Counted from the stretch's first letter, positions 16,301 through 56,185 are shown. The stretch is 64,000 nt of DNA from an uncultured virus (IMG/VR IMGVR_UViG_3300027828_000003) (IMGVR_UViG_3300027828_000003); one strand, 5' to 3'. The notes: generated by a model from the sequence alone, not told the origin. A program made the numbers and translations.

Positions 16301-17485
16301 TCACTTTTTCGACTGGTCTTCACCGGATATCCAGTTAGAAATCTCCTTGTGAACAGCATTCCCGACGTCACGATGCGTCGTTTGTTCCAGATGAGCATAG
16401 CGCTTCGTTGACAACGGTGATGAATGGCCGAGCAGTTTACCTATCGCCAGCAGTGACAAACCCCCAGACAACCCCATAGACGCGAAACTGTGGCGAAGAT
16501 CGTGTCGGCGAAGGTCCGAAACGCCTACGGACGTCAACAATCTCTTCCAAAGTTTACCGGCATTGACCAGATGCCGGGCTCGTCTTCGCCCGACGATGAG
16601 ATATGGATTACCATCGACAGACGGAAGTTGATTGATGATCTCCAACGCCAGGTCGTTGAGATGGATCTTCCGGGCACCAGACTTGCTATCATCGAGGTAT
16701 AGGAAGTCTTTCACGATCCATTCGCGCTTCGCTGTTATTATCTCGCTGATCCGCGCGCCGGTCAGGATCAACAACATGACCAATCCGGCGAAGGACCTAT
16801 CCGTTATCGCATCGGACTTCCAGAACGGTTCAAGACCTTCCACGATCTTTTGAAGCTCCGGCCTGGACAGGTAACGCTGTCGCTCGACTTCCTTGAATTT
16901 GTCGACCCCTTTGACTGGGTTAGAGTTTTTCGGCCGCCATTTCCACGACCTCTTTTCACACAGGGCAAAAGCCTTCGACAATAGGGACAAAACGCGGTTC
17001 GCTTGCGTCGGTGTTCCTTTCATTTTCTCTTTCAGGTCCTCGATGTCGTCCGAGGTGATTTCGACAACCTTTTTCTTGATGCCCAAGCGAGGGAGGACAC
17101 ATTGCTTCCACAGCCGTTCATCCTCTTTCCGGGACCGCTCCTTCTTGTTTGGGGCATGTCGCGCCATGTACTCCCTGTATAGGTCATCTATGGTCGGACT
17201 GTTCTTGACTCGCCTGCCGGCGGTCGGATCCTCCCCCTTCGCTGCTTTGTAGGACCAATCCTGGGCGATCTCTCTGGCTTGATCACACGTCATTTGCTGA
17301 CTGTGAACGCCGATCTTCGGCTTGCGATCCGTTCCGTGCTTGTCTCGATATCGAAAGAGATACGTCCGCCGGCCGGACGGCATAATCCGAACGCCGAAAC
17401 CAGCGATCTGGGTGTCCCAGACGATGTATTCCCGCTGACGAGGCTCCAAGGCCTCGACCACACGCTTCGTCAGTTTTGTCGCCAT
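16301..17485 (-). CDS. int: Tyrosine recombinase/integrase with arm-binding domain
   Basis: N-terminal WD...GFGVR..PSG; catalytic TGARISE, HDLRH, LLGH, RYAH. Confidence 0.95.
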   Translation of the reverse strand: MATKLTKRVVEALEPRQREYIVWDTQIAGFGVRIMPSGRRTYLFRYRDKHGTDRKPKIGVHSQQMTCDQAREIAQDWSYKAAKGEDPTAGRRVKNSPTIDDLYREYMARHAPNKKERSRKEDERLWKQCVLPRLGIKKKVVEITSDDIEDLKEKMKGTPTQANRVLSLLSKAFALCEKRSWKWRPKNSNPVKGVDKFKEVERQRYLSRPELQKIVEGLEPFWKSDAITDRSFAGLVMLLILTGARISEIITAKREWIVKDFLYLDDSKSGARKIHLNDLALEIINQLPSVDGNPYLIVGRRRARHLVNAGKLWKRLLTSVGVSDLRRHDLRHSFASMGLSGGLSLLAIGKLLGHSSPLSTKRYAHLEQTTHRDVGNAVHKEISNWISGEDQSKK

Positions 17486-26471: not shown

Positions 26472-26501
26472 TTGACGAATGAGATTAACTCATAATTTAA
26501 T
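26472..26501 (+). promoter_or_regulatory. PR-like promoter with overlapping operator ATGAGATTAACTCAT (26479-26493)
   Basis: TTGACG-N18-TTTAAT upstream of cro-like gene; palindrome in spacer. Confidence 0.6.
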
Positions 26502-42925: not shown

Positions 42926-43558
42926 ATGAAGAAACTGAACCGATTTTCGTCGACTCTGAATAAGAATAAGAAAAAGGCCAACAACCACCCTGCAGCCGAG
43001 AAGGCCAAGGCACAGATCCGCCAGAACGTCCTGGACGTTATCGGCGCCGACGATGCTTCCGTCTTCGACGCTTTCGCCGGCGAGGGCGTCATGCATACCG
43101 CGGTCTGGCATGCCGCAAAGAGCTATATCGGCTGCGATCTGGTCTGGTACCGAGACACGCGAACCGCCTTCGTCTGCGACAACACCCGCGTCTTGCGAGC
43201 GGTCGACCTTCAGCAGTTCAACATCTTCGATTTCGATGCTTACGGGTCGCCATGGGAACAGGCGTTCATCCTCGCTTCGAGGCGTGAGGTCAAACCGGGC
43301 GAACGCATCGGTCTGATTCTCACAGAGGGAAGCGGACTCAATCTGAAGCTGGGGGGATTGCCGATCGCCCTCCGCAAGCTGGCTGGCGTGCGGAAGACCT
43401 TCGCCGGGGGGAACCGGCATCATGACGACCTGATCGACATGGCATTGGCCGGCGTGTGCCGGCGCATGAACGTCAAGATCGTGAAGCGGTGGCGGGCGGT
43501 CCGCAAAGGCGGCGCTGCCATGCGCTATATCGGCGTTGTGTTGGAAGGAATCTCCTGA
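42926..43558 (+). CDS. SAM-dependent methyltransferase-like protein
   Basis: VFDAFAGEG motif I; FDFDAYGSPW. Confidence 0.55.
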   Translation: MKKLNRFSSTLNKNKKKANNHPAAEKAKAQIRQNVLDVIGADDASVFDAFAGEGVMHTAVWHAAKSYIGCDLVWYRDTRTAFVCDNTRVLRAVDLQQFNIFDFDAYGSPWEQAFILASRREVKPGERIGLILTEGSGLNLKLGGLPIALRKLAGVRKTFAGGNRHHDDLIDMALAGVCRRMNVKIVKRWRAVRKGGAAMRYIGVVLEGIS

Positions 43559-43624
43559 GCCGCAGGCGCCGCCCAGATCGAAACCTGGACGGCTCCCCTG
43601 CAACGGAGATCTGACTTGGCGGCT

Positions 43625-43683
43625 GCCTCATCAGGCCACGGGTACCACCCGTGACGACCAGCCCGAAAAGGGCTGGTTTCGGC
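43625..43683 (-). ncRNA. Hammerhead ribozyme, type II; predicted cleavage 3' of C at 43656
   Basis: GCC-GAAA-CCAGCCC UUUUC GGGCUGG-UC-GUCACGGG UGGUA CCCGUGGC-CUGAUGA-GGC. Confidence 0.8.
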
Positions 43684-43702
43684 TTGTTCCGGCCGATGCC
43701 GG

Positions 43703-43885: not shown

Positions 43886-44129
43886 GGGTTTCTCCTTTCT
43901 CGCTGAAGAGCGGTAAATCCAGACCCTGTCTCTCCGAAGGCAGCGGCCGCTCATCCGGACGGCAGATATTCCAGGGACATTCCTTGAAGTGCCCTTCGTC
44001 GTAAGCCTGCAAAATCCGGGGTTTGTGGTAGGTGCATTCGTGGCCGGACGGCCGCCGGCAGTGACTACCGACTTTCGCTTTGCACTCCGAACACGGGACT
44101 TCCAACGCGGGATGGCGCCGCCAAGTCAT
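43863..44129 (-). CDS. Zn-finger domain protein
   Basis: AL.V.C..C.A..G..C.RPSG...H..R. Confidence 0.55.
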   Translation of the reverse strand: MTWRRHPALEVPCSECKAKVGSHCRRPSGHECTYHKPRILQAYDEGHFKECPWNICRPDERPLPSERQGLDLPLFSEKGETHGQKQTP

Positions 44130-44155
44130 GCCGCACCCTTTGTTGCACCCGACCG

Positions 44156-44575
44156 TCATAACAGACCGATCCGGTTGTCGGGCCCGGTCCATTCCATCAA
44201 GGCAACGCCCTTCAGGAATTCATGGTCCACGATGTCCGACTCCAACACCGACTTGGCGCGGTGCAGAGCCTGATGGTCGATATCGCCGCCGCGGCGGGCG
44301 ACAATCTCGATCATCATTCCATCGTAGTCGTCGGAGAACCGGAACACGCCCGGCCAACAGTCGAAGTGGATGTCCGGCGTTGCGCCGGCGCCGCCCCAGT
44401 TCTCCCAATCTCCATCGGGATTCTTGATGAGGTCCGGATAGCCGTACATGCCATGCGGCGCCAACCGGTCCTTGACCCAGAGCCATGCCGCATGTTGCCG
44501 TTCACGCAGCTTCGCCTCGATCAAATCCGGATGGGATTGGCTCCCGACTTCCGTATCAAACAGACTTTGCTGCAT
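44156..44575 (-). CDS. Hypothetical protein
   Basis: GGAGG RBS before ATG. Confidence 0.5.
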   Translation of the reverse strand: MQQSLFDTEVGSQSHPDLIEAKLRERQHAAWLWVKDRLAPHGMYGYPDLIKNPDGDWENWGGAGATPDIHFDCWPGVFRFSDDYDGMMIEIVARRGGDIDHQALHRAKSVLESDIVDHEFLKGVALMEWTGPDNRIGLL

Positions 44576-44891
44576 GGCTGCCTCCCATTGGTCGATGGTC
44601 GAAAAGCGGCAGGCCATCCCCCAATTCGGGTTTGGTCTCGTAACGCCGGATTCCTTCCTCGGTCACATAGTAATCACCGGCCGGGCCTGGTCCTTTCAGG
44701 CTGCCGTTTCCCATCAGGACTTCGAAAGCCGCATAAATGCGCGTCCTCTTCCAGCCATAGGGATCGGCACCCGGCCGTCCACCCATCTGGTGTTGAATGG
44801 CGAACATAGACATGGCGCCTATACCAGACGGGCTCCACCGACGGATACGCGCAAAAAGCACGGCATCGTCCGGTTTCTTTTCGTCTTTCAT
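44556..44891 (-). CDS. Hypothetical protein
   Basis: Starts after shared CUGCAACAUGGAGG motif. Confidence 0.55.
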   Translation of the reverse strand: MKDEKKPDDAVLFARIRRWSPSGIGAMSMFAIQHQMGGRPGADPYGWKRTRIYAAFEVLMGNGSLKGPGPAGDYYVTEEGIRRYETKPELGDGLPLFDHRPMGGSHAAKSV

Positions 44892-44917
44892 TTCTACCTC
44901 CATGTTGCAGTGTGGTT

Positions 44918-44979
44918 TCCCACTACCGACCCCGCAGGGCCGGTTTCGACCAGTCACCAACTGGTCTCGTCAGGCAGGA
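44918..44979 (-). ncRNA. Hammerhead ribozyme, type I (GUA triplet, cleavage after 44924)
   Basis: UCCUGC-CUGACGA-GACCAG UUGGUGA CUGGUC-GAAA-CCGGCCC UGCG GGGUCGG-UA-GUGGGA. Confidence 0.9.
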
Positions 44980-47048
44980 TTTCTTGATTGGCTTACCGAT
45001 AGCGCGGTGGCGATCGGCTGCACCCAGATCGGTTCGTTCGACAGCGAAAAGGTCTGTCCGCTCCATGCCATCAGCAAGGTGCGTCCCATGGTCGAGGCGA
45101 TGGCCTGCGCTGCGGGCGGCGGGACCGCGTTTCCGATCCGTTCCCGCCATGCCGAGTCCGAAAGCCCCTCGAGCTCCATATGCTCTTCGGGACAAACGAG
45201 CCCTTGTAAAGCGGCCAACTCCAAGGTCGTGAACGGGCGATGCCACGTATTGTCGAGGGAGTGGATCACCACCACCAACCGGTCTTCCGGCGCCGGCAGT
45301 TGACAAATCGGGTCGATATTCGGATCCGGTTGCACACGCGGGTCCGCAACCGACCATCGCCCGTTGTCATGCTGAGCCGCCGCCGAGACCGCGCCGGCCG
45401 AGTCCCACCACGGGACAACACCGTAGTGCCCGCCCGATTGGTAGTGTTCCCGGCCGTCCTTGGTGAATTCAGGCCGGGGATCGGCAACGGAGAAGGCCCC
45501 GTTCCCGGTTCCGCTGGCCCCGATGACGGTGCCTGCCTGTCCATCCCAGTCGACGACACGATACTTGCCTTTCCCCTGGTAGGACGAATCCGGCCGCGGA
45601 TCGGCCACGCTCAACGCACCGGATGCAACCTGTTGGGCGCCAGTGATGGTGTAGGCCGGGTCTCCCCAGTCCGTGACCTTCAACTTGGCGCTCGATGCAC
45701 CTGGATGCCAATTGTTGTAGCGAGGATCGGCCACCGAGAACTTTCCGTTCGTCGGGAAGCTTTCCCCCGCGACAGTACCGGCCTGCTCGTTCCAGTCCGT
45801 GACGCCCATATGGCCATTGAAATGACCGCCACGGGGATCGGCCACGGACATTGCGGCGCCACCGACATGCTTCGCGCCGGTGACGACATGGGCGCTCCGG
45901 TCCCATCGCACGACACGATAGAACCCGTTGTGCCGGTTCTTCGATGGAGGCATGCGCGGATCGGCCACCGAATGGGGCCCACCACCGACCAACATCTTGC
46001 CGGTGACGACACCCGTCGATTGATCCCATTTCCGAACGCCATGCTGAACCGATCGAGGATGACCGTCGATGCGCGGGTCCGCCACGCTGTAACAGCCGTT
46101 CGTCGGCGTGCTGCGACCCTTCACCGTCACCGCCGGGCTGCCCCATGGAGTGACCCCCATGACGCCCTGGTGATAGCTTTGGTCGGGCATGATCCCGAAA
46201 TCCTTGAGAAAGCCGTCTTCAACATTCAGACGTTTCAAGGATCGCCAATCGCTACCGGCCTCGATGAAGGCCAGCCGAACCCAGGTTTTCCATTGAAGCG
46301 ACGGGATGCGATGCATGGGCCCCGCGGCCGCGACATCGCCGGGCAACGGGAAGCGTTCCAAGACCTCCCCTACCCCTTTCAAAGGCCTATGCATAGGCTC
46401 ATAGAGGAAGGGCGGAATCTTCTCCGCGTGCCGTGCCACGAGCAGGAAACGCTTCCGGCTCTGGGCCAAGCCGCCGAGATGGCCGCAATCGTGCGTCGTC
46501 TCCGCGACCAGATAGCCGTAATGCGCCAGGAGCGCGACAATCCGGTCGAGAAGCTTCCGACCGCGGTTCATGATGCGGGGAACGTTCTCAAACACGATCA
46601 GTTCCGGCGGATCATCCTGCCAGGCCTCGAGCATGAGCCAGACCCCGCGAAGGGTAAGGCTGTTCAACGCCTGATACTTGTCGCCCTTGCTGGCCGCTTC
46701 GGGCAACAAGCCCGAGAAGCCTTTGCAGGGAGCGGACAGGAACACGATATGCGGACGTTCGCCGCCCGCCGCGCGCTGGATGTCTGCCGCCGTGGCTTCG
46801 GTCCACCCATAAGGCGGCTCCTTGCCATGAAACGCCATGTACTGCTGGCGATTGAACAGGTCCAAGACCGTTCCTTTCACGCCGGCCAGCTGATCGAAAT
46901 CAGCAATGGCGCCTTGGTCGACATCGATTCCACCGATGCATTTGAACTTCGCGTTCAGGCTACCAACGCGGGCTTCGCCTTTGTTGAAGCCTTTCGCGCC
47001 GCCACCCAATCCGCAGAATAGGTGGAAGTGCCTAATCTCTACATCCAT
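44970..47048 (-). CDS. DNA (cytosine-5) methyltransferase with internal repeats
   Basis: HLFCGLGG, APCKGFS, ENV, Q.R.R, IGNAVP; seven SVADPR repeats; start moved to ATG after shared RBS. Confidence 0.9.
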   Translation of the reverse strand: MDVEIRHFHLFCGLGGGAKGFNKGEARVGSLNAKFKCIGGIDVDQGAIADFDQLAGVKGTVLDLFNRQQYMAFHGKEPPYGWTEATAADIQRAAGGERPHIVFLSAPCKGFSGLLPEAASKGDKYQALNSLTLRGVWLMLEAWQDDPPELIVFENVPRIMNRGRKLLDRIVALLAHYGYLVAETTHDCGHLGGLAQSRKRFLLVARHAEKIPPFLYEPMHRPLKGVGEVLERFPLPGDVAAAGPMHRIPSLQWKTWVRLAFIEAGSDWRSLKRLNVEDGFLKDFGIMPDQSYHQGVMGVTPWGSPAVTVKGRSTPTNGCYSVADPRIDGHPRSVQHGVRKWDQSTGVVTGKMLVGGGPHSVADPRMPPSKNRHNGFYRVVRWDRSAHVVTGAKHVGGAAMSVADPRGGHFNGHMGVTDWNEQAGTVAGESFPTNGKFSVADPRYNNWHPGASSAKLKVTDWGDPAYTITGAQQVASGALSVADPRPDSSYQGKGKYRVVDWDGQAGTVIGASGTGNGAFSVADPRPEFTKDGREHYQSGGHYGVVPWWDSAGAVSAAAQHDNGRWSVADPRVQPDPNIDPICQLPAPEDRLVVVIHSLDNTWHRPFTTLELAALQGLVCPEEHMELEGLSDSAWRERIGNAVPPPAAQAIASTMGRTLLMAWSGQTFSLSNEPIWVQPIATALSVSQSRNPA

Positions 47049-47081
47049 AACAGTTTCTCCTTGTTGCAGTTTGCGGGACAT

Positions 47082-47143
47082 CCCGCGACCGGGCGCCGAA
47101 GCACCCGGTTTCGGCTGTGTGTCAAACAGCCTCATCAGGCGGG
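47082..47143 (-). ncRNA. Hammerhead ribozyme, type I (GUC, cleavage after 47087)
   Basis: CCCGC-CUGAUGA-GGCUGU UUGACAC ACAGCC-GAAA-CCGGGUGC UUCG GCGCCCGG-UC-GCGGG. Confidence 0.92.
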
Positions 47144-47183
47144 TAATGAGTTTTACTCATTCTCACAGGTAAAAAAACACCGA

Positions 47184-48659
47184 TCATCTGTATGGAAAGG
47201 ATTTGTCCTTGTTCAGGCAGACGATCACCGTGTTGACGTTCGTGCCAACAGGCAGAAACGAGCCCGGCGGGAGATCATCCATCCGGGCCTTGTATTCATC
47301 CAGCAGCTTCCGGAAGGCCACGCTCTTCTTCGTCATCCTGAATTCCGTTCCGGCGCTCATGATCGAGATCAGATAGCCGTTCGGATTCAGGAATTTCATC
47401 GCGTGCAAGACGTGGTCAATGTCCCGTTCGAGGTCGAACGGTGGATTCATCACGACCCGGTCGTAGATCGGCTTTGGCTCGACATCCAGGAAATCACCGC
47501 AAGTCACCTTGCGGAACTTCCCGGATGCATCGAGTTCGGCCGCCAAATCTGTCTGGATTTCGACACAATCGACAACACCGCCATTCTCGACCGCTCTATA
47601 GGCCAAGCTGCCGTTACCGGCGGACGGTTCTAGAACGAGCAAAGGTCTTCGGTCTTCAGTAGGACGCCAAATCTTCGCTTGCCTCATGACGATCTCCGCG
47701 GCGTCCTCCGGCGTCGGGTAGAAGCCCCACCCTTTCGCCGGCGTGCGCTTGACCTTGAAGAGGCTGTCTTCCTCTTCCGCGGCCTTGCGGTACTTTTCGC
47801 TGCGCTCTTCGGGAATCACGTCGCCGTAGTATTCCGCCAAGAGCTTGTTGACCCGTTCAACCAGGTCGTCGCGCTGGAACCAGACGTGACAGTTTCCGTT
47901 CTTGAAAATACGGATCTTGAAATACTCTGAATCGACTTCGGTTTGACGGGGTGAAAGAGAATGACCGTCATTCCTTCGCGCTGTCTCTATGGCGTTTAGG
48001 AGTTGGCTATAAGCCGGGTTGTCCCGTTCGTCGTCGAGAACACGAAAAGTTCGCTCGATGTCGATCAGCGTGTCACGCATGTTGCTGTAATGGTTCCAAG
48101 TGCCCCACTCATCGAAACACCGGTCCAGGATCACACGGTTGCCGATTTTCCAACCGTCGTGGCTTCTGAACCGTCGATCCAGCTTGGAAAAGCAAGTGGC
48201 GATTCCGCGCTTGAAGATCGTGTCACGGTCCAGGAACAGCTGCTCTATGGTGGCAATGACGTTTTCTTCAGTGATGTCGGGTGGATCATCCACCAACTGC
48301 CTCCGAAGATCGTCCTTCGCCGTTTTGTCCATCAGCTGCTCAAGAGCCGTGATTTCGATGATCCTGGACCAGCAGTCGGAGTCGACCGCGCGCCGAACCG
48401 TCGTTTCAAAGAATTCACGCGACGGAACATTGAAGTCCGTCAGGTGGCATTTCTGAAGATGTTTCGACGAACCGTAATTGAAGCCGGTCGTGCCGGCCGC
48501 CATACGGGTTTTGGTCTTGTGCGCTTCATCGATCGCCTGCCGAGCCGATTCCAAGGCGTCATAGGCGCAACCGTAGAGACGGAGCGCCTCGTCCCTGTAC
48601 CGGACCAGTTCGGCGACAGTGATGCGAAGTGCTGGAAGTTGACCGTCAGGCATGACCAT
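47184..48659 (-). CDS. DUF4942 domain + amino-methyltransferase
   Basis: YF..R.FKNGN.H..F.R.DLV...N; FYPTP, LEPSAG.G, MNPPF. Confidence 0.85.
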   Translation of the reverse strand: MVMPDGQLPALRITVAELVRYRDEALRLYGCAYDALESARQAIDEAHKTKTRMAAGTTGFNYGSSKHLQKCHLTDFNVPSREFFETTVRRAVDSDCWSRIIEITALEQLMDKTAKDDLRRQLVDDPPDITEENVIATIEQLFLDRDTIFKRGIATCFSKLDRRFRSHDGWKIGNRVILDRCFDEWGTWNHYSNMRDTLIDIERTFRVLDDERDNPAYSQLLNAIETARRNDGHSLSPRQTEVDSEYFKIRIFKNGNCHVWFQRDDLVERVNKLLAEYYGDVIPEERSEKYRKAAEEEDSLFKVKRTPAKGWGFYPTPEDAAEIVMRQAKIWRPTEDRRPLLVLEPSAGNGSLAYRAVENGGVVDCVEIQTDLAAELDASGKFRKVTCGDFLDVEPKPIYDRVVMNPPFDLERDIDHVLHAMKFLNPNGYLISIMSAGTEFRMTKKSVAFRKLLDEYKARMDDLPPGSFLPVGTNVNTVIVCLNKDKSFPYR

Positions 48660-48727
48660 GGCCCCCTTCCCGCTTTTTCAAGTGTTTCATCGTAGTTCTC
48701 CATGTTGCAGTTGTGGGGTAGTGACTT

Positions 48728-48785
48728 CCCACGACCGCCCCAAAAGGGCGGTTTCGGCCCGTGTCACGGGGCCTCGTCAGGTGGG
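48728..48785 (-). ncRNA. Hammerhead ribozyme, type I (GUC, cleavage after 48733)
   Basis: CCCAC-CUGACGA-GGCCC CGUGACAC GGGCC-GAAA-CCGCCC UUUUG GGGCGG-UC-GUGGG. Confidence 0.92.
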
Positions 48786-49454
48786 TTTGAGATCGAACGG
48801 TGGCGGCGTTTGGGAGATTTTGTGAATCCAGCCGCCGGGTTGCCAGTCCGGATCGTCTTTTGGCGCTTCCGGCATGATCAACTCCGCTTCCTCGCCGGAA
48901 TGCCTCTTGTACCCGAGCGGGACAGTTCCGTCTTTTCGGTCAAGCTGGATCGTCTTCACGACCTGATCGACCAGACCTGTCTTCTCGGCAAATGATCCGA
49001 AGAAATTCGCATAGGAGCGATAACCGGTCGGCGATATGAAAGGACGGTCGAAGTCGACCGCATGGGCGCTGAACCCCAAACCGAACAAACCCCGATAGTC
49101 GATCAACACACGGCATTCGAGGACATTCACAATGAACCGTCCCGGCTGACCGAACATTGGCACTTCGCCGCCACTGGATTGAATGGCGTCGATAATGCGA
49201 CCGTAGGCACCTTCCTTCGTGGCGATTGCGAAAATGGTGCCGTCATTCATGCGAACAGCCAGGTTTCGAACCTGTTCCAAGATCGCCACACCGGTCTCGC
49301 CGTCCCCATTGAGGACCGCTTGATCGTAACGGACAAGTTCGTCCCAGATCGCGGCGATCAGGTCGTCCTCATCCGTCGGTAGAGCGTCCAAGGCAGCGCG
49401 TTGCGCCCGTTCTGCGTCAGTGGGAAGGTCCATTCCCAAAGCAAGCTGTGTCAT
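48777..49454 (-). CDS. KlcB-like protein
   Basis: GEVPMFGQ.G.F..., HAVDFDRPFIS.TGYRS resembles IncP KlcB (recognised by eye). Confidence 0.6.
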   Translation of the reverse strand: MTQLALGMDLPTDAERAQRAALDALPTDEDDLIAAIWDELVRYDQAVLNGDGETGVAILEQVRNLAVRMNDGTIFAIATKEGAYGRIIDAIQSSGGEVPMFGQPGRFIVNVLECRVLIDYRGLFGLGFSAHAVDFDRPFISPTGYRSYANFFGSFAEKTGLVDQVVKTIQLDRKDGTVPLGYKRHSGEEAELIMPEAPKDDPDWQPGGWIHKISQTPPPFDLKPT

Positions 49455-49488
49455 ATTGGTCTCCGTGTTGCAGTTACGGTATCGGCTA

Positions 49489-49558
49489 CCGCGACGGCCA
49501 ACTTAACGCATGACGTTAAGTTGACCGTTTCGGCCCCGCCACGGGCCTCGTCAGGCGG
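49489..49558 (-). ncRNA. Hammerhead ribozyme, type I (GUC, cleavage after 49493)
   Basis: CCGC-CUGACGA-GGCCC GUGGCG GGGCC-GAAA-long stem III-UC-GCGG. Confidence 0.92.
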
Positions 49559-50369
49559 ATCCATGGTGTTGCGGAACCCGAAGCGGATTCGGGTATCCTT
49601 CCGGCAGGAACGGCTGAAGGTCTTTCTTGATGTAGTGCCGTGCCCCAAGCTCCTGCAGGAGCTCGATCATCCGGTGGGTATAGTCTTCCCAGTCGGTCGT
49701 TTTCGTCATGGACAGGTAGTTCACCCGCCCGACCTTGTAGAGATCGACGAATTCATGGGTTTCGCGAACGATTTCCATGCTGCTTTCGACATCCAGGGTC
49801 GGCTCGAGGCTGACCCAGGTGAAGATGCCGGCCGCATGAAAGGCCTTGATCGCTTCAATCCGATCTGCCGGCGCCGCGGCGTCGCGTTCCCATTTCCGGG
49901 AAAATCCTTCGTCGAGGCTGGTCAGTGTCGAGGCAAAAGCATCACGATCGCGTCGAAACAGGTCGATATCCCGCAACGCCCTGGTTCCACCCTTGGTCAA
50001 GGTGCAGAAGCCCAGACCATGATCCCGCAGGACGATCAGGGTTTCCCGGGTCAGCGAATTGTCGCCCGGGTGATACGGATCGGTCGTGAACGAGAGCATG
50101 ACCTGGCCCGTCAATCCGGCCGCCCTGTACTTCTTGGCGTCCTTGACGAGGTTGGCCATGTAGTTCTTGCGCGGCACCGCGCCGGCATCGAACTCTTTCC
50201 GGTCCTGCTTGGTGACGCGCGGCACATAGCAATAGGCGCATTTGTGCCCGCAGCCGCGATATGGGTTTGCGGCCAGTGGCGCATATTCTCCGGCCTGACC
50301 TTTCGGCGCGTAGATATGCGTGCATCCCTTCAGCGAAAGGCCATCGGGATTGATTGTTGGTGTATGCAT
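49551..50369 (-). CDS. Radical SAM protein (SPL-like)
   Basis: NPYRGCGHKCAYCY CxxxCxxC; TDPY; LTK; WVSLEP. Confidence 0.85.
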   Translation of the reverse strand: MHTPTINPDGLSLKGCTHIYAPKGQAGEYAPLAANPYRGCGHKCAYCYVPRVTKQDRKEFDAGAVPRKNYMANLVKDAKKYRAAGLTGQVMLSFTTDPYHPGDNSLTRETLIVLRDHGLGFCTLTKGGTRALRDIDLFRRDRDAFASTLTSLDEGFSRKWERDAAAPADRIEAIKAFHAAGIFTWVSLEPTLDVESSMEIVRETHEFVDLYKVGRVNYLSMTKTTDWEDYTHRMIELLQELGARHYIKKDLQPFLPEGYPNPLRVPQHHGSA

Positions 50370-50390
50370 TCAAATTCTCCATGTTGCACG

Positions 50391-50419
50391 ATAGTATGAG
50401 TTTAACTCATTATTGCGAA
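50391..50419 (-). promoter_or_regulatory. Putative promoter with operator ATGAGTTTAACTCAT (50396-50410)
   Basis: TTCGCA-N17-TACTAT on minus strand. Confidence 0.5.
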
Positions 50420-50637
50420 GATGCCAAAACATATGTAACTGCCTGCATCTTCACGATTTTCTTGGATAAACGATATGTCTACTTATAGCCCTATTGAATA
50501 CCTATTTAGAGAGCCTTCCTATTGACTATTCGGGCGACTTCCCCAATTAAGAAACATCCATGTTGCAGTGGATTTCACCGACCTTGATCGGTGCATCTAC
50601 ACCCGAGCCGGATCACTCCGCGCTCGGGTGTTGTGCA

Positions 50638-50943
50638 TCAGGACATCAGGTTGTCGAAATAGGCCTTCGCCGACTCGTAGTCGCGATATTGCCGACCGTG
50701 CTGCGCGCCACCCATTTCGAAGTGGACCGCATAATGGCCGTTCGTCCATCGCATCATCGAGCCGGCAGCATGCCAACCGGCAGTCACGGCCTTCAACTGA
50801 ACCTCTCGGCCGCCGAGCGCCTTTCTGGTTTCCAAAACGGTGATCTCCGGCCGCGGTTCAAGCCTGCTATTCGGCTCTTCAAGCAAGCACTTCCCTGCCG
50901 GGATGTACTTATCTCGAAAATGGACATTCGGGATTTCAAGCAT
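50638..50943 (-). CDS. Hypothetical protein
   Basis: Starts after shared RBS motif. Confidence 0.6.
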   Translation of the reverse strand: MLEIPNVHFRDKYIPAGKCLLEEPNSRLEPRPEITVLETRKALGGREVQLKAVTAGWHAAGSMMRWTNGHYAVHFEMGGAQHGRQYRDYESAKAYFDNLMS

Positions 50944-50969
50944 ATCGGTTCTCCATGTTGCAGTTGCGG

Positions 50970-51035
50970 TTTCCCACGACCGACCCCGCAGGGCCGGTTT
51001 CGGCCAGTCACCAACTGGCCTCGTCAGGCAGGAAA
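50970..51035 (-). ncRNA. Hammerhead ribozyme, type I (GUC, cleavage after 50978)
   Basis: UUUCCUGC-CUGACGA-GGCCAG UUGGUGA CUGGCC-GAAA-CCGGCCC UGCG GGGUCGG-UC-GUGGGAAA. Confidence 0.92.
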
Positions 51036-51452
51036 GTAGTCACAGGCGATCTGCTCGTCGGTGATCTCGAGTTCGAAGGTCGAACCCGGTTTGAGCTTTT
51101 CGGGCAGTTCGTCCAAATGGAAGACTTCGACGAAATCGTCGCCGCCGACCGCATCCCGGCTCCGTTCCCAGAACCCTGGATCATCAGGCGAATATCCGAG
51201 CGCGTAGACGACCTTCTTCTTGCCCGGCCGGTCCGGATCGAGCATGGCCGGGAAGCCATTCGATACCAAGTAGATGCCGTCGTCTTTGACGATCAACAAA
51301 CCCGGCTGTCCCAGTTTTTCCTCGCCGTCCTGGGGATCAATACTCCCGGTCAGGTCGAGACGTTCGCCGAAAGTCAGGCTATGTTCGTTCGAAGCGCGTG
51401 CATGCACCATCAACAAATTGACCGAGTCGGCAGGGAAACGAAGTTTCGTCAT
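51024..51452 (-). CDS. DUF3085-like protein
   Basis: L.VKDDGIYL.SNG, VYA.G..P, GGDDFVE. Confidence 0.7.
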   Translation of the reverse strand: MTKLRFPADSVNLLMVHARASNEHSLTFGERLDLTGSIDPQDGEEKLGQPGLLIVKDDGIYLVSNGFPAMLDPDRPGKKKVVYALGYSPDDPGFWERSRDAVGGDDFVEVFHLDELPEKLKPGSTFELEITDEQIACDYFPA

Positions 51453-51958
51453 TTCCTGTCCTCCTCGATCGACTGTTGGACGCCCGGCAGACGATAGATG
51501 TTCTCCGGATCCGTGTCCGACGCGTTGAAGTAGTCGATCTGCGCCTTGACCTCTTTGATGTCATCAGCCTCGTCCTCCTGCCACCGATAGCTATACCGGC
51601 GTTCCGTATCACCCTTCTCGGGCGGCACGAGGTAGACCGAAAATCCACCATACTTGAAGGCTTCGACCTCGCCGGCCGGCCGCCGCATGCTCGACATCAC
51701 GATCTCCGCGGCGCGTTTTTGACCGATCAGGAGAATGTCCCGGTTCAGTTCGTCCGCGTGCTGCGCCATCTCGTCGTAGCTATCGCCGTTGCACCAGAAC
51801 ACCGGTACAGGGTGGTAACCTGGCTCGTTCTCGACAGCGATACCGAGGCCGAACCCTTCAGATTTGGCAACCACTGGGACAAACGCCCAGTTCTTGCCGT
51901 CGACGACCGTAAAAAGGTCACATTCGGCCATGCCTTCCGTTGTCAATTGTTTCAGCAT
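51449..51958 (-). CDS. Hypothetical protein
   Basis: Starts after shared RBS motif; GIAVENEPGY. Confidence 0.6.
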   Translation of the reverse strand: MLKQLTTEGMAECDLFTVVDGKNWAFVPVVAKSEGFGLGIAVENEPGYHPVPVFWCNGDSYDEMAQHADELNRDILLIGQKRAAEIVMSSMRRPAGEVEAFKYGGFSVYLVPPEKGDTERRYSYRWQEDEADDIKEVKAQIDYFNASDTDPENIYRLPGVQQSIEEDRK

Positions 51959-51993
51959 TTCAGCTTCTCCATGTTGCAGTTACGGTAATGCAT

Positions 51994-52064
51994 ACCGCGA
52001 CCATCACCCCCGGCTGGCGCCGGGGGCTAGGTTTCGCCGGGATTGCACCGGCTCGTCAGGCGGC
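51994..52064 (-). ncRNA. Hammerhead ribozyme, type I (GUC, cleavage after 51999)
   Basis: GCCGC-CUGACGA-GCCGG UGCAAUC CCGGC-GAAA-CC..GCCCCCGGC GCCA GCCGGGGGU..GG-UC-GCGGU. Confidence 0.9.
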
Positions 52065-52469
52065 TTCTGCTTCTTCGGGCTGATGACCCTGCATGATGAT
52101 GTTCTGCAGCCATTGGGCCAGGAAATCGTTCTGGCCCTTCTTTTCCTTCGGATAGACCTTGCCCGGTTCGGGGTAGACCTCCCGGAAGGAGCTCAGGTAG
52201 TCCTGCTGAATGTGAAGGGCTTCCGCCATCTTCAGCTTCGGGACGACCGCGACCAGCATTTCGGGATCCGCCATGAGATCGCCGTTTTGCAGCCCATAGT
52301 GCGCCAGGGAGACCTTGACCCGGTCCTTCTCGCGCTCGACGACCTCGACGCACAGATCCATGAATCCGGACGCCTTCAACTTGGTGTGGAAGCCGACCTC
52401 ACGGTCCTCGATCCCCGGAATGATTTTCGTCAAACGGGCGTAGATCGTCTTGTAGATTTTGTGTTCCAT
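52056..52469 (-). CDS. DUF1249/DUF6908-like protein
   Basis: GFMDL.VE, SLAHY..QNGDLMADPEM, FL..WL.NI..QG. Confidence 0.7.
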   Translation of the reverse strand: MEHKIYKTIYARLTKIIPGIEDREVGFHTKLKASGFMDLCVEVVEREKDRVKVSLAHYGLQNGDLMADPEMLVAVVPKLKMAEALHIQQDYLSSFREVYPEPGKVYPKEKKGQNDFLAQWLQNIIMQGHQPEEAEAA

Positions 52470-52505
52470 CTCGAAATTCTCCATGTTGCAGTTACGGTAT
52501 TGGCT

Positions 52506-52562
52506 ACCGCGACCGGTCCCGAAGAACCGGTTTCGGCCCCGCCACGGGCCTCGTCAGGCGGC
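52506..52562 (-). ncRNA. Hammerhead ribozyme, type I (GUC, cleavage after 52511)
   Basis: GCCGC-CUGACGA-GGCCC GUGGCG GGGCC-GAAA-CCGGUUC UUCG GGACCGG-UC-GCGGU. Confidence 0.93.
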
Positions 52563-53027
52563 GTTCAATTCGCGATTGACGCGCGATCTGAAATCAATAA
52601 GAGCGGGCGCATATGCCTCGTGATAGTGCCCATGGTACCGGCCACCATCCTCGAGGTTCTGCCACCATGTCGCGTAGGGATGGCGCACGTTGTCGATGCA
52701 GCAGAGCAGAAAACGACCGGGGGCCGTCATTTGACCGTCTGGTGACGGGTGTTCCGCTACAATGAAGCCGGTCGACCCGGCGCCCTTGACCCCCTCGATA
52801 ATCGAGCCAGGGAACACGTATTTCGTCCGCTCCTGGATTTGAGCTTCGGAAACGCTGCCGACCTTTTCGAAGTCAATGCCCTTGTGGATGCACCACAGTT
52901 CGGCGATTTCCTCGACTTGGGTCTGATTTTCGCCCTCGATGTGCTTATGCAGCCAATTCGTGAAGCCGACCCCTGGCCCGCCGTGAACGGTCTCGGCCAG
53001 CTTGATCGACGCAAAATAGATCGTCAT
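52554..53027 (-). CDS. Hypothetical protein
   Basis: Starts after shared RBS; HPYATW....G...GHY. Confidence 0.6.
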   Translation of the reverse strand: MTIYFASIKLAETVHGGPGVGFTNWLHKHIEGENQTQVEEIAELWCIHKGIDFEKVGSVSEAQIQERTKYVFPGSIIEGVKGAGSTGFIVAEHPSPDGQMTAPGRFLLCCIDNVRHPYATWWQNLEDGGRYHGHYHEAYAPALIDFRSRVNRELNAA

Positions 53028-53058
53028 TAGATTCTCCCATGTTGCAGTTTGCGGACAT

Positions 53059-53127
53059 ACCGCGACCAGCCGTCGCACAACTTGCGACAACTGGTTTCGC
53101 CGGGATTGCACCGGCTCATCAGGCGGC
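53059..53127 (-). ncRNA. Hammerhead ribozyme, type I (GUC, cleavage after 53064)
   Basis: GCCGC-CUGAUGA-GCCGG UGCAAUC CCGGC-GAAA-CCAGUUGUCGCA AGUUG UGCGACGGCUGG-UC-GCGGU. Confidence 0.92.
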
Positions 53128-53601
53128 TTGATTGACCTGGCGCGGGTCGTTCCAGACCTGGGCGCCGGCGTCGACGTAAAGGCCGACGTAATGGTCAAGG
53201 GGACAGTGAGAAAACCCGTTGTAGGGTGGTGCGTCGGGTGTCACGCCTGTGATGAAAGACGGGCCGGAAATGACCAGATCGATCAGCTTTTCATGCGGTA
53301 TTTGACGCATATCGACCACAGGGACACCTAGACCTTTCAGAATGCTGGCGTAGGGCTCGCCCTCGCCATATCCTTCCAGTCGGCATCCTGAAACGCGCGT
53401 ATTGGCGTCTTCATAGTGGACTGTCCAGCCACCGTGGCCGATGGTCATCAAGACCGCCCGACGGATGGTCGCCAAACTCGACTTGATCGAAAAACGCTCC
53501 TTTGTCCGCGCCTCGATGTGTTTTCCGTTTTCCCGCAATTCCATGTGATACCACCAAGTTTTGGCATGGTGATTCAACTTTTTGTAAATGACGGTTCTCA
53601 T
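53119..53601 (-). CDS. Hypothetical protein
   Basis: Starts after shared RBS motif. Confidence 0.6.
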   Translation of the reverse strand: MRTVIYKKLNHHAKTWWYHMELRENGKHIEARTKERFSIKSSLATIRRAVLMTIGHGGWTVHYEDANTRVSGCRLEGYGEGEPYASILKGLGVPVVDMRQIPHEKLIDLVISGPSFITGVTPDAPPYNGFSHCPLDHYVGLYVDAGAQVWNDPRQVNQAA

Positions 53602-53646
53602 CGTGGACTCCGTGTTGCAGATGGCGAAATTGCCTAACGAATTCAG

Positions 53647-53687
53647 GAGAAAAGGCCGGGGGCGAGCGATGAATAAGCCCGCCCCCG
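53647..53687 (-). terminator. Putative intrinsic terminator after clamp-like gene
   Basis: CGGGGGCGGGC UUAUUCAUC GCUCGCCCCCG then GCCUUUUCUC. Confidence 0.5.
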
Positions 53688-53707
53688 ATTGATTGACCTA
53701 GTGAAGT

Positions 53708-54943
53708 TTAAGCGGCGATTGCTTCCGCCTGTTCGGCCGCCTTGGCTGCCTTACGGCCCCGATTGTTCCGGCCTTTGGTGGCCTTGGGGGCCTTCGTGGT
53801 CTCGGCCTTGGCAGCTGCCGGCGCCGTTTCGGGCTCCGGCTTGGCTTCCGGTTCCGCCTTGGGCTCGGGTTGCGGTTCCTGTTCCGGTTCCGCCGGTTCC
53901 GTGGTTTCTGGTTCGGACGTTTCCGGCTCCGTGGTTTCGGGTTCCGTTTCCGTCGTTTCCTCGCCAAGTTCCATCCCGAGCGGCTGCCCGTCGATCGCCT
54001 CGTCGCCACCCTGTTCGGGCGCGGGCAAGGCTTTCTCGCTCGTGCGAGCCATCAAGGCTTCAATCCGTTCCCGGTATTCGTCGGCCTTCGCGGAAAGCTT
54101 GGCCTTCTCAAGCGGGTCCGTCGTTTCGTCCGCCCATGCCTGATTGCGCGTTTGATGCGCCTTCAGAGCGGCGAGCGTCCGATTGACGGCCGGACTGATA
54201 AGACGTGCCGTCTCCGGCGCGATGCTTTGCTTGACCCTGACGGGCATCAGAATAAGCATCGCCCCCGGATATTCCGGAAACGTCGCCATGGCCGCTTCCG
54301 TCGCGGAATGGGCGTACAGGCTCACGTTTCCGTCCTTCCCGCCCAAGAGCTTCGCGATATCGCCAACGGATTTGAGATATTTTCCGTTGAACGACACCGG
54401 TTCGAAGTCCTTAGCGCGGGCGTCGTCTTTGTCCGTCACCCCGCCGGTCAGACTTTCCATGATCATTTGGTAATCAGGAAACGTGCCGGACACGATCGGG
54501 CACTTGATGCGCGCGTCTTGCTTGGCGTCCGTGAGGTACGCGCTCGACGCGTTCACCGCGTTCTCGATCTTGATCAGCTCATCCTCGCCGAGCTTCTGCA
54601 AAAGCTTCAGCTTGGGAGCGAGATTTTCGCTGTGCAGGATCGCGCCTTGTTCCAGCCATGCCGGGGCTTGCCCGACAAGCGGCTGAGTGGCGATGAACAA
54701 ACGGTGACCATCCGTGGCCACGGCCCGGATCCTGTCCTCGACGACATGGAAAAAGATTCCGTTGAGATAGTAGCGGGTCTCTTCCGTGCTGGCGCACGCC
54801 AAAGCGGCATGCATCAGGGTCGCCGGAAACAGGATCGATTCGGAGGCTCCGACCTCGACGGCCTGGGCGTTGTCGTCCTGGCGCGCGTTGTTCTCGGCTT
54901 CCGTGGTCTGTTCCGTGGTGGTGACGTGGTTTTGGTCAGTCAT
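53708..54943 (-). CDS. DNA polymerase III beta-clamp-like protein with acidic/Pro-rich tail
   Basis: EETRYYLNGI, AVATDGHRL, GTFPDY, FNGKYL, LMPVR. Confidence 0.75.
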   Translation of the reverse strand: MTDQNHVTTTEQTTEAENNARQDDNAQAVEVGASESILFPATLMHAALACASTEETRYYLNGIFFHVVEDRIRAVATDGHRLFIATQPLVGQAPAWLEQGAILHSENLAPKLKLLQKLGEDELIKIENAVNASSAYLTDAKQDARIKCPIVSGTFPDYQMIMESLTGGVTDKDDARAKDFEPVSFNGKYLKSVGDIAKLLGGKDGNVSLYAHSATEAAMATFPEYPGAMLILMPVRVKQSIAPETARLISPAVNRTLAALKAHQTRNQAWADETTDPLEKAKLSAKADEYRERIEALMARTSEKALPAPEQGGDEAIDGQPLGMELGEETTETEPETTEPETSEPETTEPAEPEQEPQPEPKAEPEAKPEPETAPAAAKAETTKAPKATKGRNNRGRKAAKAAEQAEAIAA

Positions 54944-54965
54944 TGGATTTTCTCCGTGTTGCAGT

Positions 54966-55335
54966 GTGACCGGCGGCGGATGCGCTGCCGGGGCCTAGTT
55001 TGAAAATGGCCTAAGCGGGCGCACCCTCGCGGGCGCGCCCAATGGAGAATCTGCAATGTGGAGAATGTCGTTATTCACAATGTCCGAGAACGGGACGAAA
55101 GCGGGCGGCGGCTGCCTGTCGCGTTGTGGAATGCCGGATAAACGGACTGGATACCGCCGCACCGGTCACTGCCTTCCCAGCCGATCCCGTAGGACCGTGC
55201 CACGTTCCGAAAGCCTTGACGCGAAGGCCTAGCCCAAAGGGCCAGAGCCGATCCCGATTCACGATGTCCAATAACCAGACCCGAGGGGCCTGACGGCGCT
55301 CTGACCGCCGCGCACGGCGCAGGCATTGCCCTAAC
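54966..55335 (-). ncRNA. Long structured 5' leader/putative sRNA containing antisense copy of the shared RBS motif
   Basis: About 370 nt with no credible ORF; several hairpins; AUUCUCCACAUUGCAG at 55066-55051. Confidence 0.55.
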
Positions 55336-55339
55336 CGAT

Positions 55340-55373
55340 ATGAGATAGTCTCATATTATGGGGTATAGTTCAA
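55340..55373 (-). promoter_or_regulatory. Promoter for the ribozyme-punctuated operon with overlapping operator
   Basis: TTGAAC-N17-(TGn)GACTAT; ATGAGATAGTCTCAT at 55340-55354. Confidence 0.6.
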
Positions 55374-55530
55374 GGCTTTTTATCGCAAACTCATATGGTT
55401 ATGGTTGGGCATTAATGAGCCGGTTTAAGGGCCGTTGGTGGCTGTAGGGGTATGTGAGGGGTAGACGTAGGGGTATGAGGTTGCGCGAATGTGGGGGCGT
55501 TAGAGAGGCTGTAGACCTGGCTTTGTATGA

Positions 55531-55801
55531 GGCAGGGAGAGAGAGCCGTAGGGGCTGGGCTGGGTGTAGGGACAGGGAGAGAGAGCCGTAGGGGCTGGGC
55601 CGGGTGTAGGGACAGGGAGAGAAGGCCGTAGGGGCTGGGCTGGGTGTAGGGACAGGGAGAGAGAGCCGTAGGGGCTGGGCTGGGTGTAGGGACAGGGAGA
55701 GAGAGCCGTAGGGGCTGGGCCGGGTGTAGGGACAGGGAGAGAGAGCCGTAGGGGCTGGGCCGGGTGTAGGGACAGGGAGAGAAGGCCGTAGGGGCTGGGC
55801 T
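55531..55801. repeat. Tandem array of 40-bp G-rich unit, about 6.8 copies
   Basis: GACAGGGAGAGA(GA/AG)GCCGTAGGGGCTGGGC(T/C)GGGTGTAGG at 40-nt period. Confidence 0.97.
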
Positions 55802-55835
55802 GATGGTGCCCGATGTGTTGGGGCTTGAGGTAGGG

Positions 55836-55869
55836 CAAAAGAAAAGGGCCCGCGCAGCGGCGGGCCCTT
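55836..55869 (-). terminator. Intrinsic terminator
   Basis: AAGGGCCCGC..GCGGGCCC UUUUCUUUUG. Confidence 0.8.
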
Positions 55870-55892
55870 GGTGGTGTAGGTGACGGCGCTTG

Positions 55893-56129
55893 TTAGGCGG
55901 CGGCTTCCAGGGTGCCCCCGGTCTCGAGCGTTTCAAGTTTCGCATAGAGCGGATTCAATTGCTTGGTCACAAGGCCCTTATCGTAGCCGGTCAAGGCGTC
56001 GCGGGTGCGTTCCAGCCGGGTGATGCGGGCCTTGGTGGCGGCGATCTGGTGGCCGATGGTGCCCTTGGTGGCGGCCGCCTTGGCGCCGGCGTTCAAACGG
56101 GTCTGGCTGTCGATGTTCACGTTACGCAT
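55893..56129 (-). CDS. Small hypothetical protein (early)
   Basis: Own promoter, shared RBS motif and terminator. Confidence 0.65.
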   Translation of the reverse strand: MRNVNIDSQTRLNAGAKAAATKGTIGHQIAATKARITRLERTRDALTGYDKGLVTKQLNPLYAKLETLETGGTLEAAA

Positions 56130-56185
56130 GGTTCAATCTCCTGTTGCAGTGTCCGGCGGGGACCGTCCCCGTCGTCGATGGTTAG

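Follow-up and report, generated by a model that had tools for sequence, protein, structure and literature searches.

Why do thirteen sites in one phage operon carry the same short sequence, conserved well past the Shine-Dalgarno (SD) element, and why do many of them lie just behind a predicted self-cleaving ribozyme? The question is raised by a stretch of 64,000 nucleotides (nt) from the uncultured virus IMGVR_UViG_3300027828_000003, called the window in what follows. The sequence, (A)CUGCAACAYGGAG, has 13 minus-strand copies between 44.9 and 56.1 kb, and the genes that bear it make up a single operon on the minus strand, from ~56.2 kb down to ~43.6 kb. An earlier note on this DNA took the motif for a common target of an RNA or protein regulator and perhaps a homology site for cassette shuffling. 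The explanation favoured here is that the motif would be the common translation-initiation leader of an operon cut by hammerhead ribozymes into single-gene mRNAs, and a handle for RNA pairing, in cis with the leader of a DnaN-like gene and in trans with an RNA released by the last ribozyme. On the sequence comparisons below, we hold this explanation to be evenly poised between right and wrong, and its trans part, taken alone, to fall somewhat short of that.

A motif shared by the start sites

At no more than two mismatches, CTGCAACANGGAG has 21 matches in the window, a number that none of 100 dinucleotide-preserving shuffles reaches (mean 4.9, maximum 13). On the minus strand, nine of the copies between 44898 and 54964 are exact and three are near matches; a 13th, one base shorter (CTGCAACAGGAG), lies at 56138-56149. 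All the sites listed in the earlier note exist, and a single coordinate has to be shifted (53035 for 53034). Aligned on CUGCAA, the 13 sites have the consensus aACUGCAACAuGGAGaa, with about 2 bits of information per position from A-1 through GGAG. Hence, conservation reaches 9-10 nt past the SD element, as had been claimed. Twelve of the 13 sites qualify as SD initiation regions, with GGAG or GGGAG placed 6-9 nt ahead of the AUG of an open reading frame (ORF) of 14-692 codons, which bears out the observation that the motif nearly always stands just ahead of an AUG. The exception is the site at 50556, described earlier as having a degenerate SD, which ends in GGAU and has no ORF behind it.

Eight copies stand behind a type I hammerhead, the motif starting 13-22 nt after the cleavage site, and five do not (5/13), so the motif does also precede genes without a ribozyme. 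That it is found nowhere else in this orientation, as the earlier note had it, is nearly right: TGCAACA occurs at 15 minus-strand places in the window, of which 13 are motif sites and two, at 44147 and 35032, are not, and at two places on the plus strand. Beyond the window, the exact 15-mer has 74 matches in IMG/VR, all single and none behind a hammerhead. The combination of a hammerhead and the motif gives 50 single matches in 185,579 GTDB species genomes, which is about what we estimate for chance; one of these has CUGANGA nearby and none has a second motif copy. The pattern CTGCAA-N0-3-GGAG-N4-10-ATG occurs 2-6 times in each of four alphaproteobacterial genomes, against 0-3 times for a reversed control. 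Judged by these counts, the motif is not a general host feature and is rare outside the window phage. The earlier note held a motif common throughout the genome to speak against its proposal; as far as the collections allow, these scans reveal nothing of the kind.

Would the ribosome itself read the conserved bases? In a standardised, insulated ribosome-binding site (RBS), the ribozyme and a 5′ hairpin would strip away the upstream context and an unstructured CA-rich leader, read directly by the ribosome, would equalise translation; the complementary stretches described below would be incidental or of local effect only. The canonical spacing between SD and AUG (6-9 nt at 12/12 sites) and the single-stranded state predicted for the motif in processed mRNAs suit this idea. 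Yet an enhancer read by the ribosome is expected in host-like genomes, and the motif is rare in the four alphaproteobacterial ones. The idea also leaves unexplained the positions of ~2 bits that are unable to pair with the 3′ end of 16S rRNA; pairing of the motif with the alphaproteobacterial 3′ end beyond GGAG was considered and set aside. We regard an insulated RBS as an unlikely account of the motif, and further evidence on both of its sides is given below.

A complementary tail at the end of the operon

After its last ORF, the operon ends in a type II hammerhead (43617..43684, minus strand; 52.6 bits with Rfam RF02276, cut-off 37), with cleavage predicted between 43656 and 43655. A relative of 114.8 kb, G003, has one as well (41.8 bits with RF02276, above the cut-off). 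In both, the only type II hammerhead at the Rfam level closes the operon, and what comes after it is not a gene but a non-coding tail. The predicted 3′ cleavage product is a candidate trans-acting RNA of ~100 nt (43558..43655, minus strand), with a fold of -58.4 kcal/mol (z -4.65). It holds, in this order, a stem I hairpin, a hairpin between the CUGAU core and GUCAG, an anti-motif, and a hairpin that also ends a convergent plus-strand gene. The anti-motif, AUCUCC-GUUGCAG (43598..43610, minus strand), complements CUGCAAC(AY)GGAGAU, apart from two nt that bulge out on the motif side.

Behind the type II core, the window reads GCCAAGUCAG-AUCUCC-GUUGCAG-GGGA, followed by the hairpin adjoining the convergent gene, and G003 reads UUAUCAG-UCCU-GUUGCAG-AUGG, followed by a hairpin and a convergent gene (tails ..AUCUCCGUUGCAG.. 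and ..UCCUGUUGCAGAUGG.., respectively). In the G003 tail, UCCU-GUUGCAGAUGG is complementary to CCAUCUGCAAC-AGGA. The start sites of the window are conserved on the 3′ side of the motif (CAUGGAGA), and the window tail extends as UCUCC; those of G003 are conserved on the 5′ side (CCAU), and the G003 tail extends as AUGG. The conserved side of the motif tracks each phage's own tail complement. An insulated RBS leaves this change in step unexplained.

The strength of these complements was ranked with 24-nt segments slid along the operon strand and paired with each phage's own consensus. The G003 tail ranks first of 38,259 segments in its genome (-21.9 kcal/mol, z -6.8; the next has -18.1), which an insulated RBS again leaves unexplained, and the window tail ranks fourth of 21,326 minus-strand segments (-18.0 kcal/mol, z -4.9). 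The 12 start sites of the window pair with its tail at -18.6 to -23.7 kcal/mol (mean -21.6), against a mean of -14.2 (standard deviation 3.4, best -23.0) for 48 other ORF starts of the window. The start sites of G003 favour their own tail (mean -26.1) over that of the window (mean -19.9), and their co-folding gain, net of intramolecular structure, is -11.6 to -19.4.

The predicted 3′ product has the same architecture in both phages, namely a stem I hairpin, a CUGAU/(A/G)UCAG hairpin, a free anti-SD, and a hairpin with a GCAG/CUGC base. In the window the base helix GUUGCAGG/CCUGCGGC contains two G.U pairs, and pairing with a start site would be all Watson-Crick. This combination of a free anti-SD with a weak helix is read, on the predicted folds, as a toehold-and-switch design. 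Both tails lie at a 3′ end, after the last ORF and abutting a convergent gene, and both have a stable hairpin. In the same folds, the CUGAU of the type II core pairs after cleavage with the downstream (A/G)UCAG (43630-43611 in the window, 8484-8464 of locus L263 in G003), so that the released fragment would hold no active core.

Thirty other type II hammerheads with the same 3′ core were found in IMG/VR; none has TTGCAG and, by eye, nearly all lead straight to an SD and start codon. That scan did not return G003, which fits the pattern, and scans of the collection are thus not exhaustive. The tail pattern itself was found in IMG/VR only in the window phage, in G003, and in three chance matches, and in the Joint Genome Institute (JGI) metagenomes only in the window's own contig and in one chance match. 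Neither 401 sampled alphaproteobacterial genomes nor the rest of the 388 loci collected contain it.

The leader of the DnaN-like gene

A second complement lies within the same transcription unit. A non-coding stretch of ~330 nt separates the DnaN-like gene from a promoter-like site near 55.38 kb and ends with a leader anti-motif, UUCUCC-ACA-UUGCAG-AUUCUCCAU (55042..55065, minus strand), ~90 nt upstream of the second motif copy and continued by a hairpin (55065-55011). In the ranking above this anti-motif is third of the 21,326 minus-strand segments (-18.3 kcal/mol). When 55095-54932 is folded, both the minimum-energy and the centroid structure join UUCUCC..UUGCAG to CUGCAA..GGAGAA at the start of the DnaN-like gene (54964-54950); the pairing probability is ~1 and the fold has -65.8 kcal/mol (z -4.6), none of 200 shuffles being as stable. 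G003 keeps the leader block (GGACAUUGUGAAUAA...CACAUGCAGAUUCCCCAUUGGG), where a compensatory change lets GAUUCCC pair with GGGAAUC at the DnaN-like start site of that phage. The leader is thus predicted, from these folds, to sequester the DnaN-like start site in cis.

Upstream of this leader, between it and the terminator of the first small ORF, there is a tandem repeat (55533-55802) with 6.8 copies of a 40-base-pair (bp) unit and 95% matches. The conserved leader region also contains, on the plus strand, TTATTCACA, a DnaA-box-like word. Repeats and TTATTCACA together may be a replication origin with iterons.

Proposed mechanism

These observations can be assembled as follows. Each cleaved mRNA would begin with a short 5′ hairpin, followed by single-stranded (A)ACUGCAACAYGGAGAA and by an AUG 6-9 nt after GGAG, and the 9-10 conserved bases upstream of the SD would be kept as an RNA-pairing handle. 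In cis, the 5′ leader of the DnaN-like gene, the first large one of the operon, would fold back on that gene's start site. In trans, the terminal type II hammerhead would release the last ~100 nt of the operon as a small RNA, whose free anti-SD (AUCUCC) would act as toehold and whose GUUGCAG would leave a weak helix with two G.U pairs for perfect Watson-Crick pairing with CUGCAAC. The end fragment would have to accumulate and to pair in the cell, the presumed effect being repression. Because the tail RNA is made only once the whole operon has been transcribed, repression of the 12-13 start sites would be delayed and collective. The last hammerhead may be the maturation device of an anti-RBS RNA that, through its toehold and switch, would pair with the standard leader of every gene in the operon and give a self-timed, all-at-once shut-off of translation, a proposal that we put forward tentatively. 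The RNA half of the regulator proposed earlier has in this sense some support at the sequence level, from two complementary stretches in the same transcription unit that are conserved with matching changes in G003.

Relatives of the window phage

Among the generic hammerhead matches listed, three contig groups have CUGCAA immediately ahead of the SD. G003 is genuinely related to the window phage, although diverged: it is syntenic with the window and has protein identities of 59% for the 78-amino-acid ORF, 48% for the DnaN-like protein, 52% for DUF6908, 75% for the radical SAM protein, and 48% for the portal. In its genome, AUCUGCAA is found at 13 places of the operon strand and at three of the other, and 11 of the 13 are start sites with the consensus CCAUCUGCAA-N0-4-GGAG. 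Three motif sites of G003 are behind hammerheads and four lie outside the ribozyme cluster. The genes found between the conserved ones differ between the window and G003, and in each they have the motif. In G001/G002 (G002 being a record of 53.7 kb with terminal repeats) there are seven start sites of the form YCUGCAAUGGAGNCC / CUGCAAUGGAG, six of them behind hammerheads. G002 is much more distant: tblastn finds there only two of the window's operon proteins, the DnaN-like protein (31%) and that of the 225-amino-acid ORF (29%).

Relatives were sought with the DUF4942, portal, and DnaN-like proteins, with alignments of the radical SAM and DnaN-like proteins, and with three patterns; together they led to no others than the window phage itself, G003, and the G001/G002 group. 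The DUF4942 protein found nothing in IMG/VR or in the species genomes. Its carriers in GenBank (the best phage is Rhizobium phage RHph_TM3_3_3, 52%, along with three alphaproteobacterial plasmids) have neither hammerheads nor the motif. The portal and DnaN-like searches of GenBank phages gave distant matches only, and the portal search of IMG/VR gave only L129, a fragment of the window phage, to which L266 and L301 also belong. The DnaN-like alignment retrieved G003 and three distant loci without ribozymes or motif. With the radical SAM alignment, only G003 has both ribozymes and motif among the best 80 of 182 loci.

The three lineages also bear on whether a protein, of the phage or of its host, binds the motif and jointly represses or activates all these start sites. 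A precedent is the RegA protein of phage T4, which represses the translation of phage early mRNAs. A protein operator would suit a sequence that overlaps the start sites of many genes in an early-type operon, a CUGCAA core kept in three lineages at variable spacing to GGAG, the lack of an RNA partner in G002, and the many operon ORFs without known family. Against it, Pfam (E up to 0.01 or 0.001) finds no RegA, CsrA, or other RNA-binding family among the 81 ORFs of the window, which leaves the protein half of the earlier proposal unsupported; the only operon protein that tblastn finds in window, G003, and G002 is the DnaN-like one; and a protein operator does not predict complementary RNAs. We consider it improbable, more so than an insulated RBS.

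Weighing the proposed pairing handle

A number of observations weigh against the idea that the motif is a handle for the tail RNA. In the window, two coding-sequence sites (ranks 1 and 2; -20.4 and -18.3 kcal/mol) outscore the tail, and one control ORF start, that at -23.0, pairs with it as well as motif sites do. The window start sites do not discriminate between their own tail (-21.6) and that of G003 (-21.7), and their co-folding gain is modest, -5.3 to -9.3, a shuffled target giving -3.7 (standard deviation 2.1, best -9.5). In the predicted fold the core of the anti-motif is masked, GUUGCAGG being paired with CCUGCGGC at the base of the hairpin, and in a transcript longer by 12 nt AUCUCC would be paired too, with a downstream GGAGAU. 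With its anti-motif masked, the tail could be the relic of a cis module or a simple bidirectional terminator. The U-tract is missing behind the window hairpin and weak in G003.

The comparative evidence has its own weak points. The tail with its complementary, conserved seed is shown in two lineages only, and since the window and G003 are homologous, inheritance could account for part of the GUUGCAG that they share. In G002 a strict CUGCAAUGGAG is kept, yet no type II hammerhead scores above the cut-off. The one anti-motif candidate of G002 (46001-45989) was rejected as weak and antisense inside a real convergent ATPase/GNAT gene, and neither strand of G002 has a better complement. Something other than a tail RNA may therefore hold CUGCAA in place, and G002 is in this respect as an insulated RBS would have it. 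As for the leader block, it adjoins the 40-bp repeats and TTATTCACA, so part of its conservation may be at the DNA level.

Type I hammerheads of the operon

The eight type I hammerheads, all on the minus strand, extend (from C3 to H17) over 53122-53064, 52557-52511, 52059-51999, 51027-50978, 49554-49493, 48780-48733, 47138-47087, and 44973-44924. By pattern search and our own parsing, all eight have the CUGANGA and GAAA elements and a UH cleavage core (seven GUC, one GUA), with stems I of 4-8 bp, stems II of 5-8 bp, and stems III of 3-16 bp. The stop codon of the upstream gene sits within the CUGA of the core. In stem I, the six bases before CUGA covary with the bases after the cut. The Rfam type I model has no match in the window at E up to 1, and the type III model has only a weak one at 53089-53141 (22.4 bits, cut-off 48.5). 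The Rfam models thus give no score for these type I units, and the assignment rests on the parsing and on the co-variation of stem I. With this qualification, the eight units are predicted self-cleaving hammerheads.

The bases that follow the cut can either form the 3′ strand of stem I or an alternative hairpin of 4-6 bp with bases further downstream. By eye, the loop of this hairpin and loop II are complementary in every one of the eight (e.g., GCCA/UGGC, GUCAC/GUGAC, UGCA/UGCA), which fits the pseudoknot type described in the main text of PMC3088659. This suggests an active fold that is stabilised by a pseudoknot and that would switch to a 5′-terminal hairpin after the cut. If true, such a switch would free the cleavage product and cap its 5′-OH end.

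Contigs of two public assemblies end precisely at two identical copies of a hammerhead (49529-49556 and 52532-52559); the repeated ribozyme modules break short-read assemblies. Some ribozymes and motifs form near-identical pairs (51027/44973), and stem II is shared within 52557/49554 and within 53122/52059. Are the motifs then patches of DNA homology, at which gene cassettes with their ribozyme and start site are swapped or copied while gene conversion homogenises the copies? The near-identical modules, the assemblies broken at the repeated ribozyme, and the turnover of motif-bearing genes between the window and G003 all point that way. As a recombination site of the integron attC kind, however, the motif fails: it is asymmetric and strand-specific, and the sole integrase of the window is a phage tyrosine integrase (16301-17485), 27 kb away, with no recombinase associated with the motif. 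Moreover, 13 bases are short for homologous exchange, the position relative to SD and AUG is fixed, and the motif is kept without ribozymes and across proteins of ~45-75% identity, the surrounding ribozyme stems having diverged. Complementary RNAs would also be left unexplained. As the main function of the motif, the shuffling suggested in the earlier note is very improbable, the least so favoured of the explanations considered.

The layout of a stop codon in the core, ribozyme, G(C/U)GG hairpin, spacer, SD, and AUG is widespread, with at least 141 matches at no fewer than 132 IMG/VR loci, and contig groups differ in the spacer before the SD (e.g., CCGC-AAAUCA(A)). Both the wide occurrence of the layout in phage contigs and its group-specific spacers would also suit an insulated RBS. 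In one group, AAAUCAA before the SD is kept in L158, L176, L177, L192, L237, L233, L250, L251, L164, L147, and L242, where it stands behind a hammerhead and its hairpin, often after a second hairpin. On these comparisons, ribozyme-processed phage mRNAs in general seem to carry lineage-specific standard leaders.

The motif copies along the operon

All copies are on the minus strand and are numbered here in the direction of transcription. The first three have no ribozyme. Copy 1 (56138..56149; CUGCAACAGGAG, the one shorter by a base) is the start site of the 78-amino-acid ORF (55893-56129) and sits behind a promoter-like TTGACA-N17-TATATT and a hairpin. That ORF is followed, at 55835-55870, by a clean intrinsic terminator (GGGCCCGC..GCGGGCCC + UUUUCUUUUGC), which has weak Rfam matches to ctRNA_p42d and mmgR (22-23 bits, under the cut-offs), probably due to the terminator alone. 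Copy 2 (54952..54964) is the start site of the DnaN-like gene (53708-54943) and copy 3 (53608..53620) that of a 160-amino-acid ORF (53119-53601).

The following four stand behind hammerheads. Copy 4 (53035..53047, ..CAUGGGAG), 16 nt past the cleavage site, serves a 157-amino-acid ORF (52554-53027), copy 5 (52479..52491) the DUF6908 gene (52056-52469), copy 6 (51967..51979) a 169-amino-acid ORF (51449-51958), and copy 7 (50951..50963) a 101-amino-acid ORF (50638-50943). The DUF3085 gene (51024-51452) overlaps the 169-amino-acid ORF at ATGA and lacks a motif.

Copy 8 (50556..50568), the one that ends in GGAU, has a hairpin before it and an AT-rich promoter region after it. It could be a vestigial start site, the remnant of a lost cassette, or a decoy for the complementary RNAs. 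Copy 9 (50377..50389; GUGCAACAUGGAG, starting with GUGCAAC) opens the radical SAM gene (49551-50369); immediately upstream of it is a promoter-like TTGGCA-N17-TAAACT, which the palindrome ATGAGTTAAACTCAT overlaps. Homologues of this gene with 66-78% protein identity are found in at least 80 IMG/VR contigs (the best 80 of 182 confirmed ones). Nearly all of these contigs lack ribozymes, and the radical SAM gene is thus a widely shared phage accessory gene.

The last four again follow hammerheads. Copy 10 (49461..49473) is the start site of the 225-amino-acid ORF (48777-49454). Copy 11 (48698..48710) precedes an ORF of 14 codons (MKHLKKREGGHGHA, 48648-48692). Its stop codon and the AUG of the DUF4942 methyltransferase gene (47184-48659) overlap, and from this arrangement the short ORF looks like a leader peptide with translational coupling. 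Copy 12 (47057..47069, with CAAGGAG) belongs to the C5 cytosine methyltransferase gene (44970-47048) and copy 13 (44898..44910) to a 111-amino-acid ORF (44556-44891), its hammerhead being the one with the GUA cleavage triplet. A possible 14th, degenerate copy (GUGCAACAAAGGG, 44136..44148) lies 19 nt before an AUG at 44128 inside the same operon.

The phage and its operon

The window is part of an 80-kb JGI metagenome contig, L301 (100% identity over 20,062 bases), and is present in three DNA runs labelled marine sediment; none of the runs that contain it is listed as RNA. Two DNA runs compared with the window show zero sequence variants. It is a temperate, siphovirus-like phage of a marine-sediment metagenome, with a lambda-type tape measure, tail genes L, I, and J, the tyrosine integrase, CI/Cro-like regulators, SSB, an SNF2 helicase, Dam, a portal (DUF4055), a Mu F-like protein, and tRNA-Met. 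The operon encodes the 78-amino-acid, DnaN-like, DUF6908, DUF3085, and radical SAM proteins, the DUF4942 and C5 cytosine methyltransferases, and several ORFs without known family.

A 15-bp palindrome, ATGAGTNAAACTCAT, is found at 26479, 29002, 33918, 47146, 50396, and 62297, i.e., at six places with at most one mismatch for 0.01 expected. Two of these overlap promoter-like sites in the operon, one right in front of the hammerhead at 47138 and one right in front of the radical SAM gene; another lies directly before tRNA-Met. From its positions, the palindrome looks like a phage repressor operator or part of a phage promoter.

Known systems and significance

Several known systems share features with this locus. 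Small RNAs derived from mRNA 3′ ends, such as CpxQ and SroC of enterobacteria, repress by pairing at ribosome-binding sites. The predicted tail RNA resembles them in sharing the terminator hairpin of an mRNA, in being released by processing, and in having a seed complementary to start sites. In contrast with them, release would be by a self-cleaving ribozyme instead of RNase E, and the targets would be the 12-13 genes of the parent operon itself, reached through their standard leader. As with T4 RegA, a single trans-acting factor would address many early-gene start sites of a phage; unlike RegA, the candidate factor is an RNA, and the 81 ORFs include no RegA homologue.

Sequestration of the SD by an anti-SD in cis is found in mRNA leaders, in the expression platforms of riboswitches and in RNA thermometers. 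The leader at 55065-55042 is likewise predicted to mask, by pairing, the SD of the gene that follows and the bases before that SD, but Rfam recognises in this leader no ligand-binding fold of the kind riboswitches have. Because the motif it sequesters is shared with 12 other sites, this leader could also compete in trans. The synthetic insulator RiboJ places a hammerhead and a hairpin ahead of a standard RBS. Here too self-cleavage would strip the upstream context and leave a hairpin followed by a defined RBS; unlike RiboJ, the arrangement is natural, is repeated eight times in one operon, and comes with complementary partner RNAs.

The closest precedent is in the clustered type I and type II hammerheads that flank prophage genes (PMC3088659; Perreault et al. 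2011). The main text of that paper proposes processing to single-gene mRNAs and leaves the function open; it reports that hammerheads are common in phage genomes, where their role is unclear. The window is like those prophages, as described there, in having several type I and type II hammerheads between the genes of one phage transcript, anti-restriction-type cargo (DNA methyltransferases), and a short stem I that a predicted pseudoknot with loop II would stabilise. It differs from that description in its shared start-site motif and in a terminal ribozyme predicted to release a complementary RNA; "Shine-Dalgarno" and "ribosome binding" have no occurrence in the main text of PMC3088659. A full-text search, within the literature that it covers, returned no paper in which hammerhead operons share a start-site motif or a ribozyme releases an anti-RBS RNA.

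If the pairing explanation fails, the locus still documents lineage-specific, strongly conserved leaders on ribozyme-processed phage mRNAs. As it stands, it offers a concrete circuit, made of operon-cutting ribozymes, one shared leader, and complementary RNAs, one of them predicted to be ribozyme-released. Were the explanation true, the circuit would be a natural counterpart of synthetic ones that combine a ribozyme insulator, a standard RBS, and a small RNA, and it would supply natural parts for synthetic biology, namely an insulating ribozyme, a standard leader, and a matching repressor RNA. It would also give a phage hammerhead its first defined biological role beyond the separation of mRNAs, and would tie self-cleaving ribozymes to the biogenesis of small RNAs and to operon-wide translational timing in phages.

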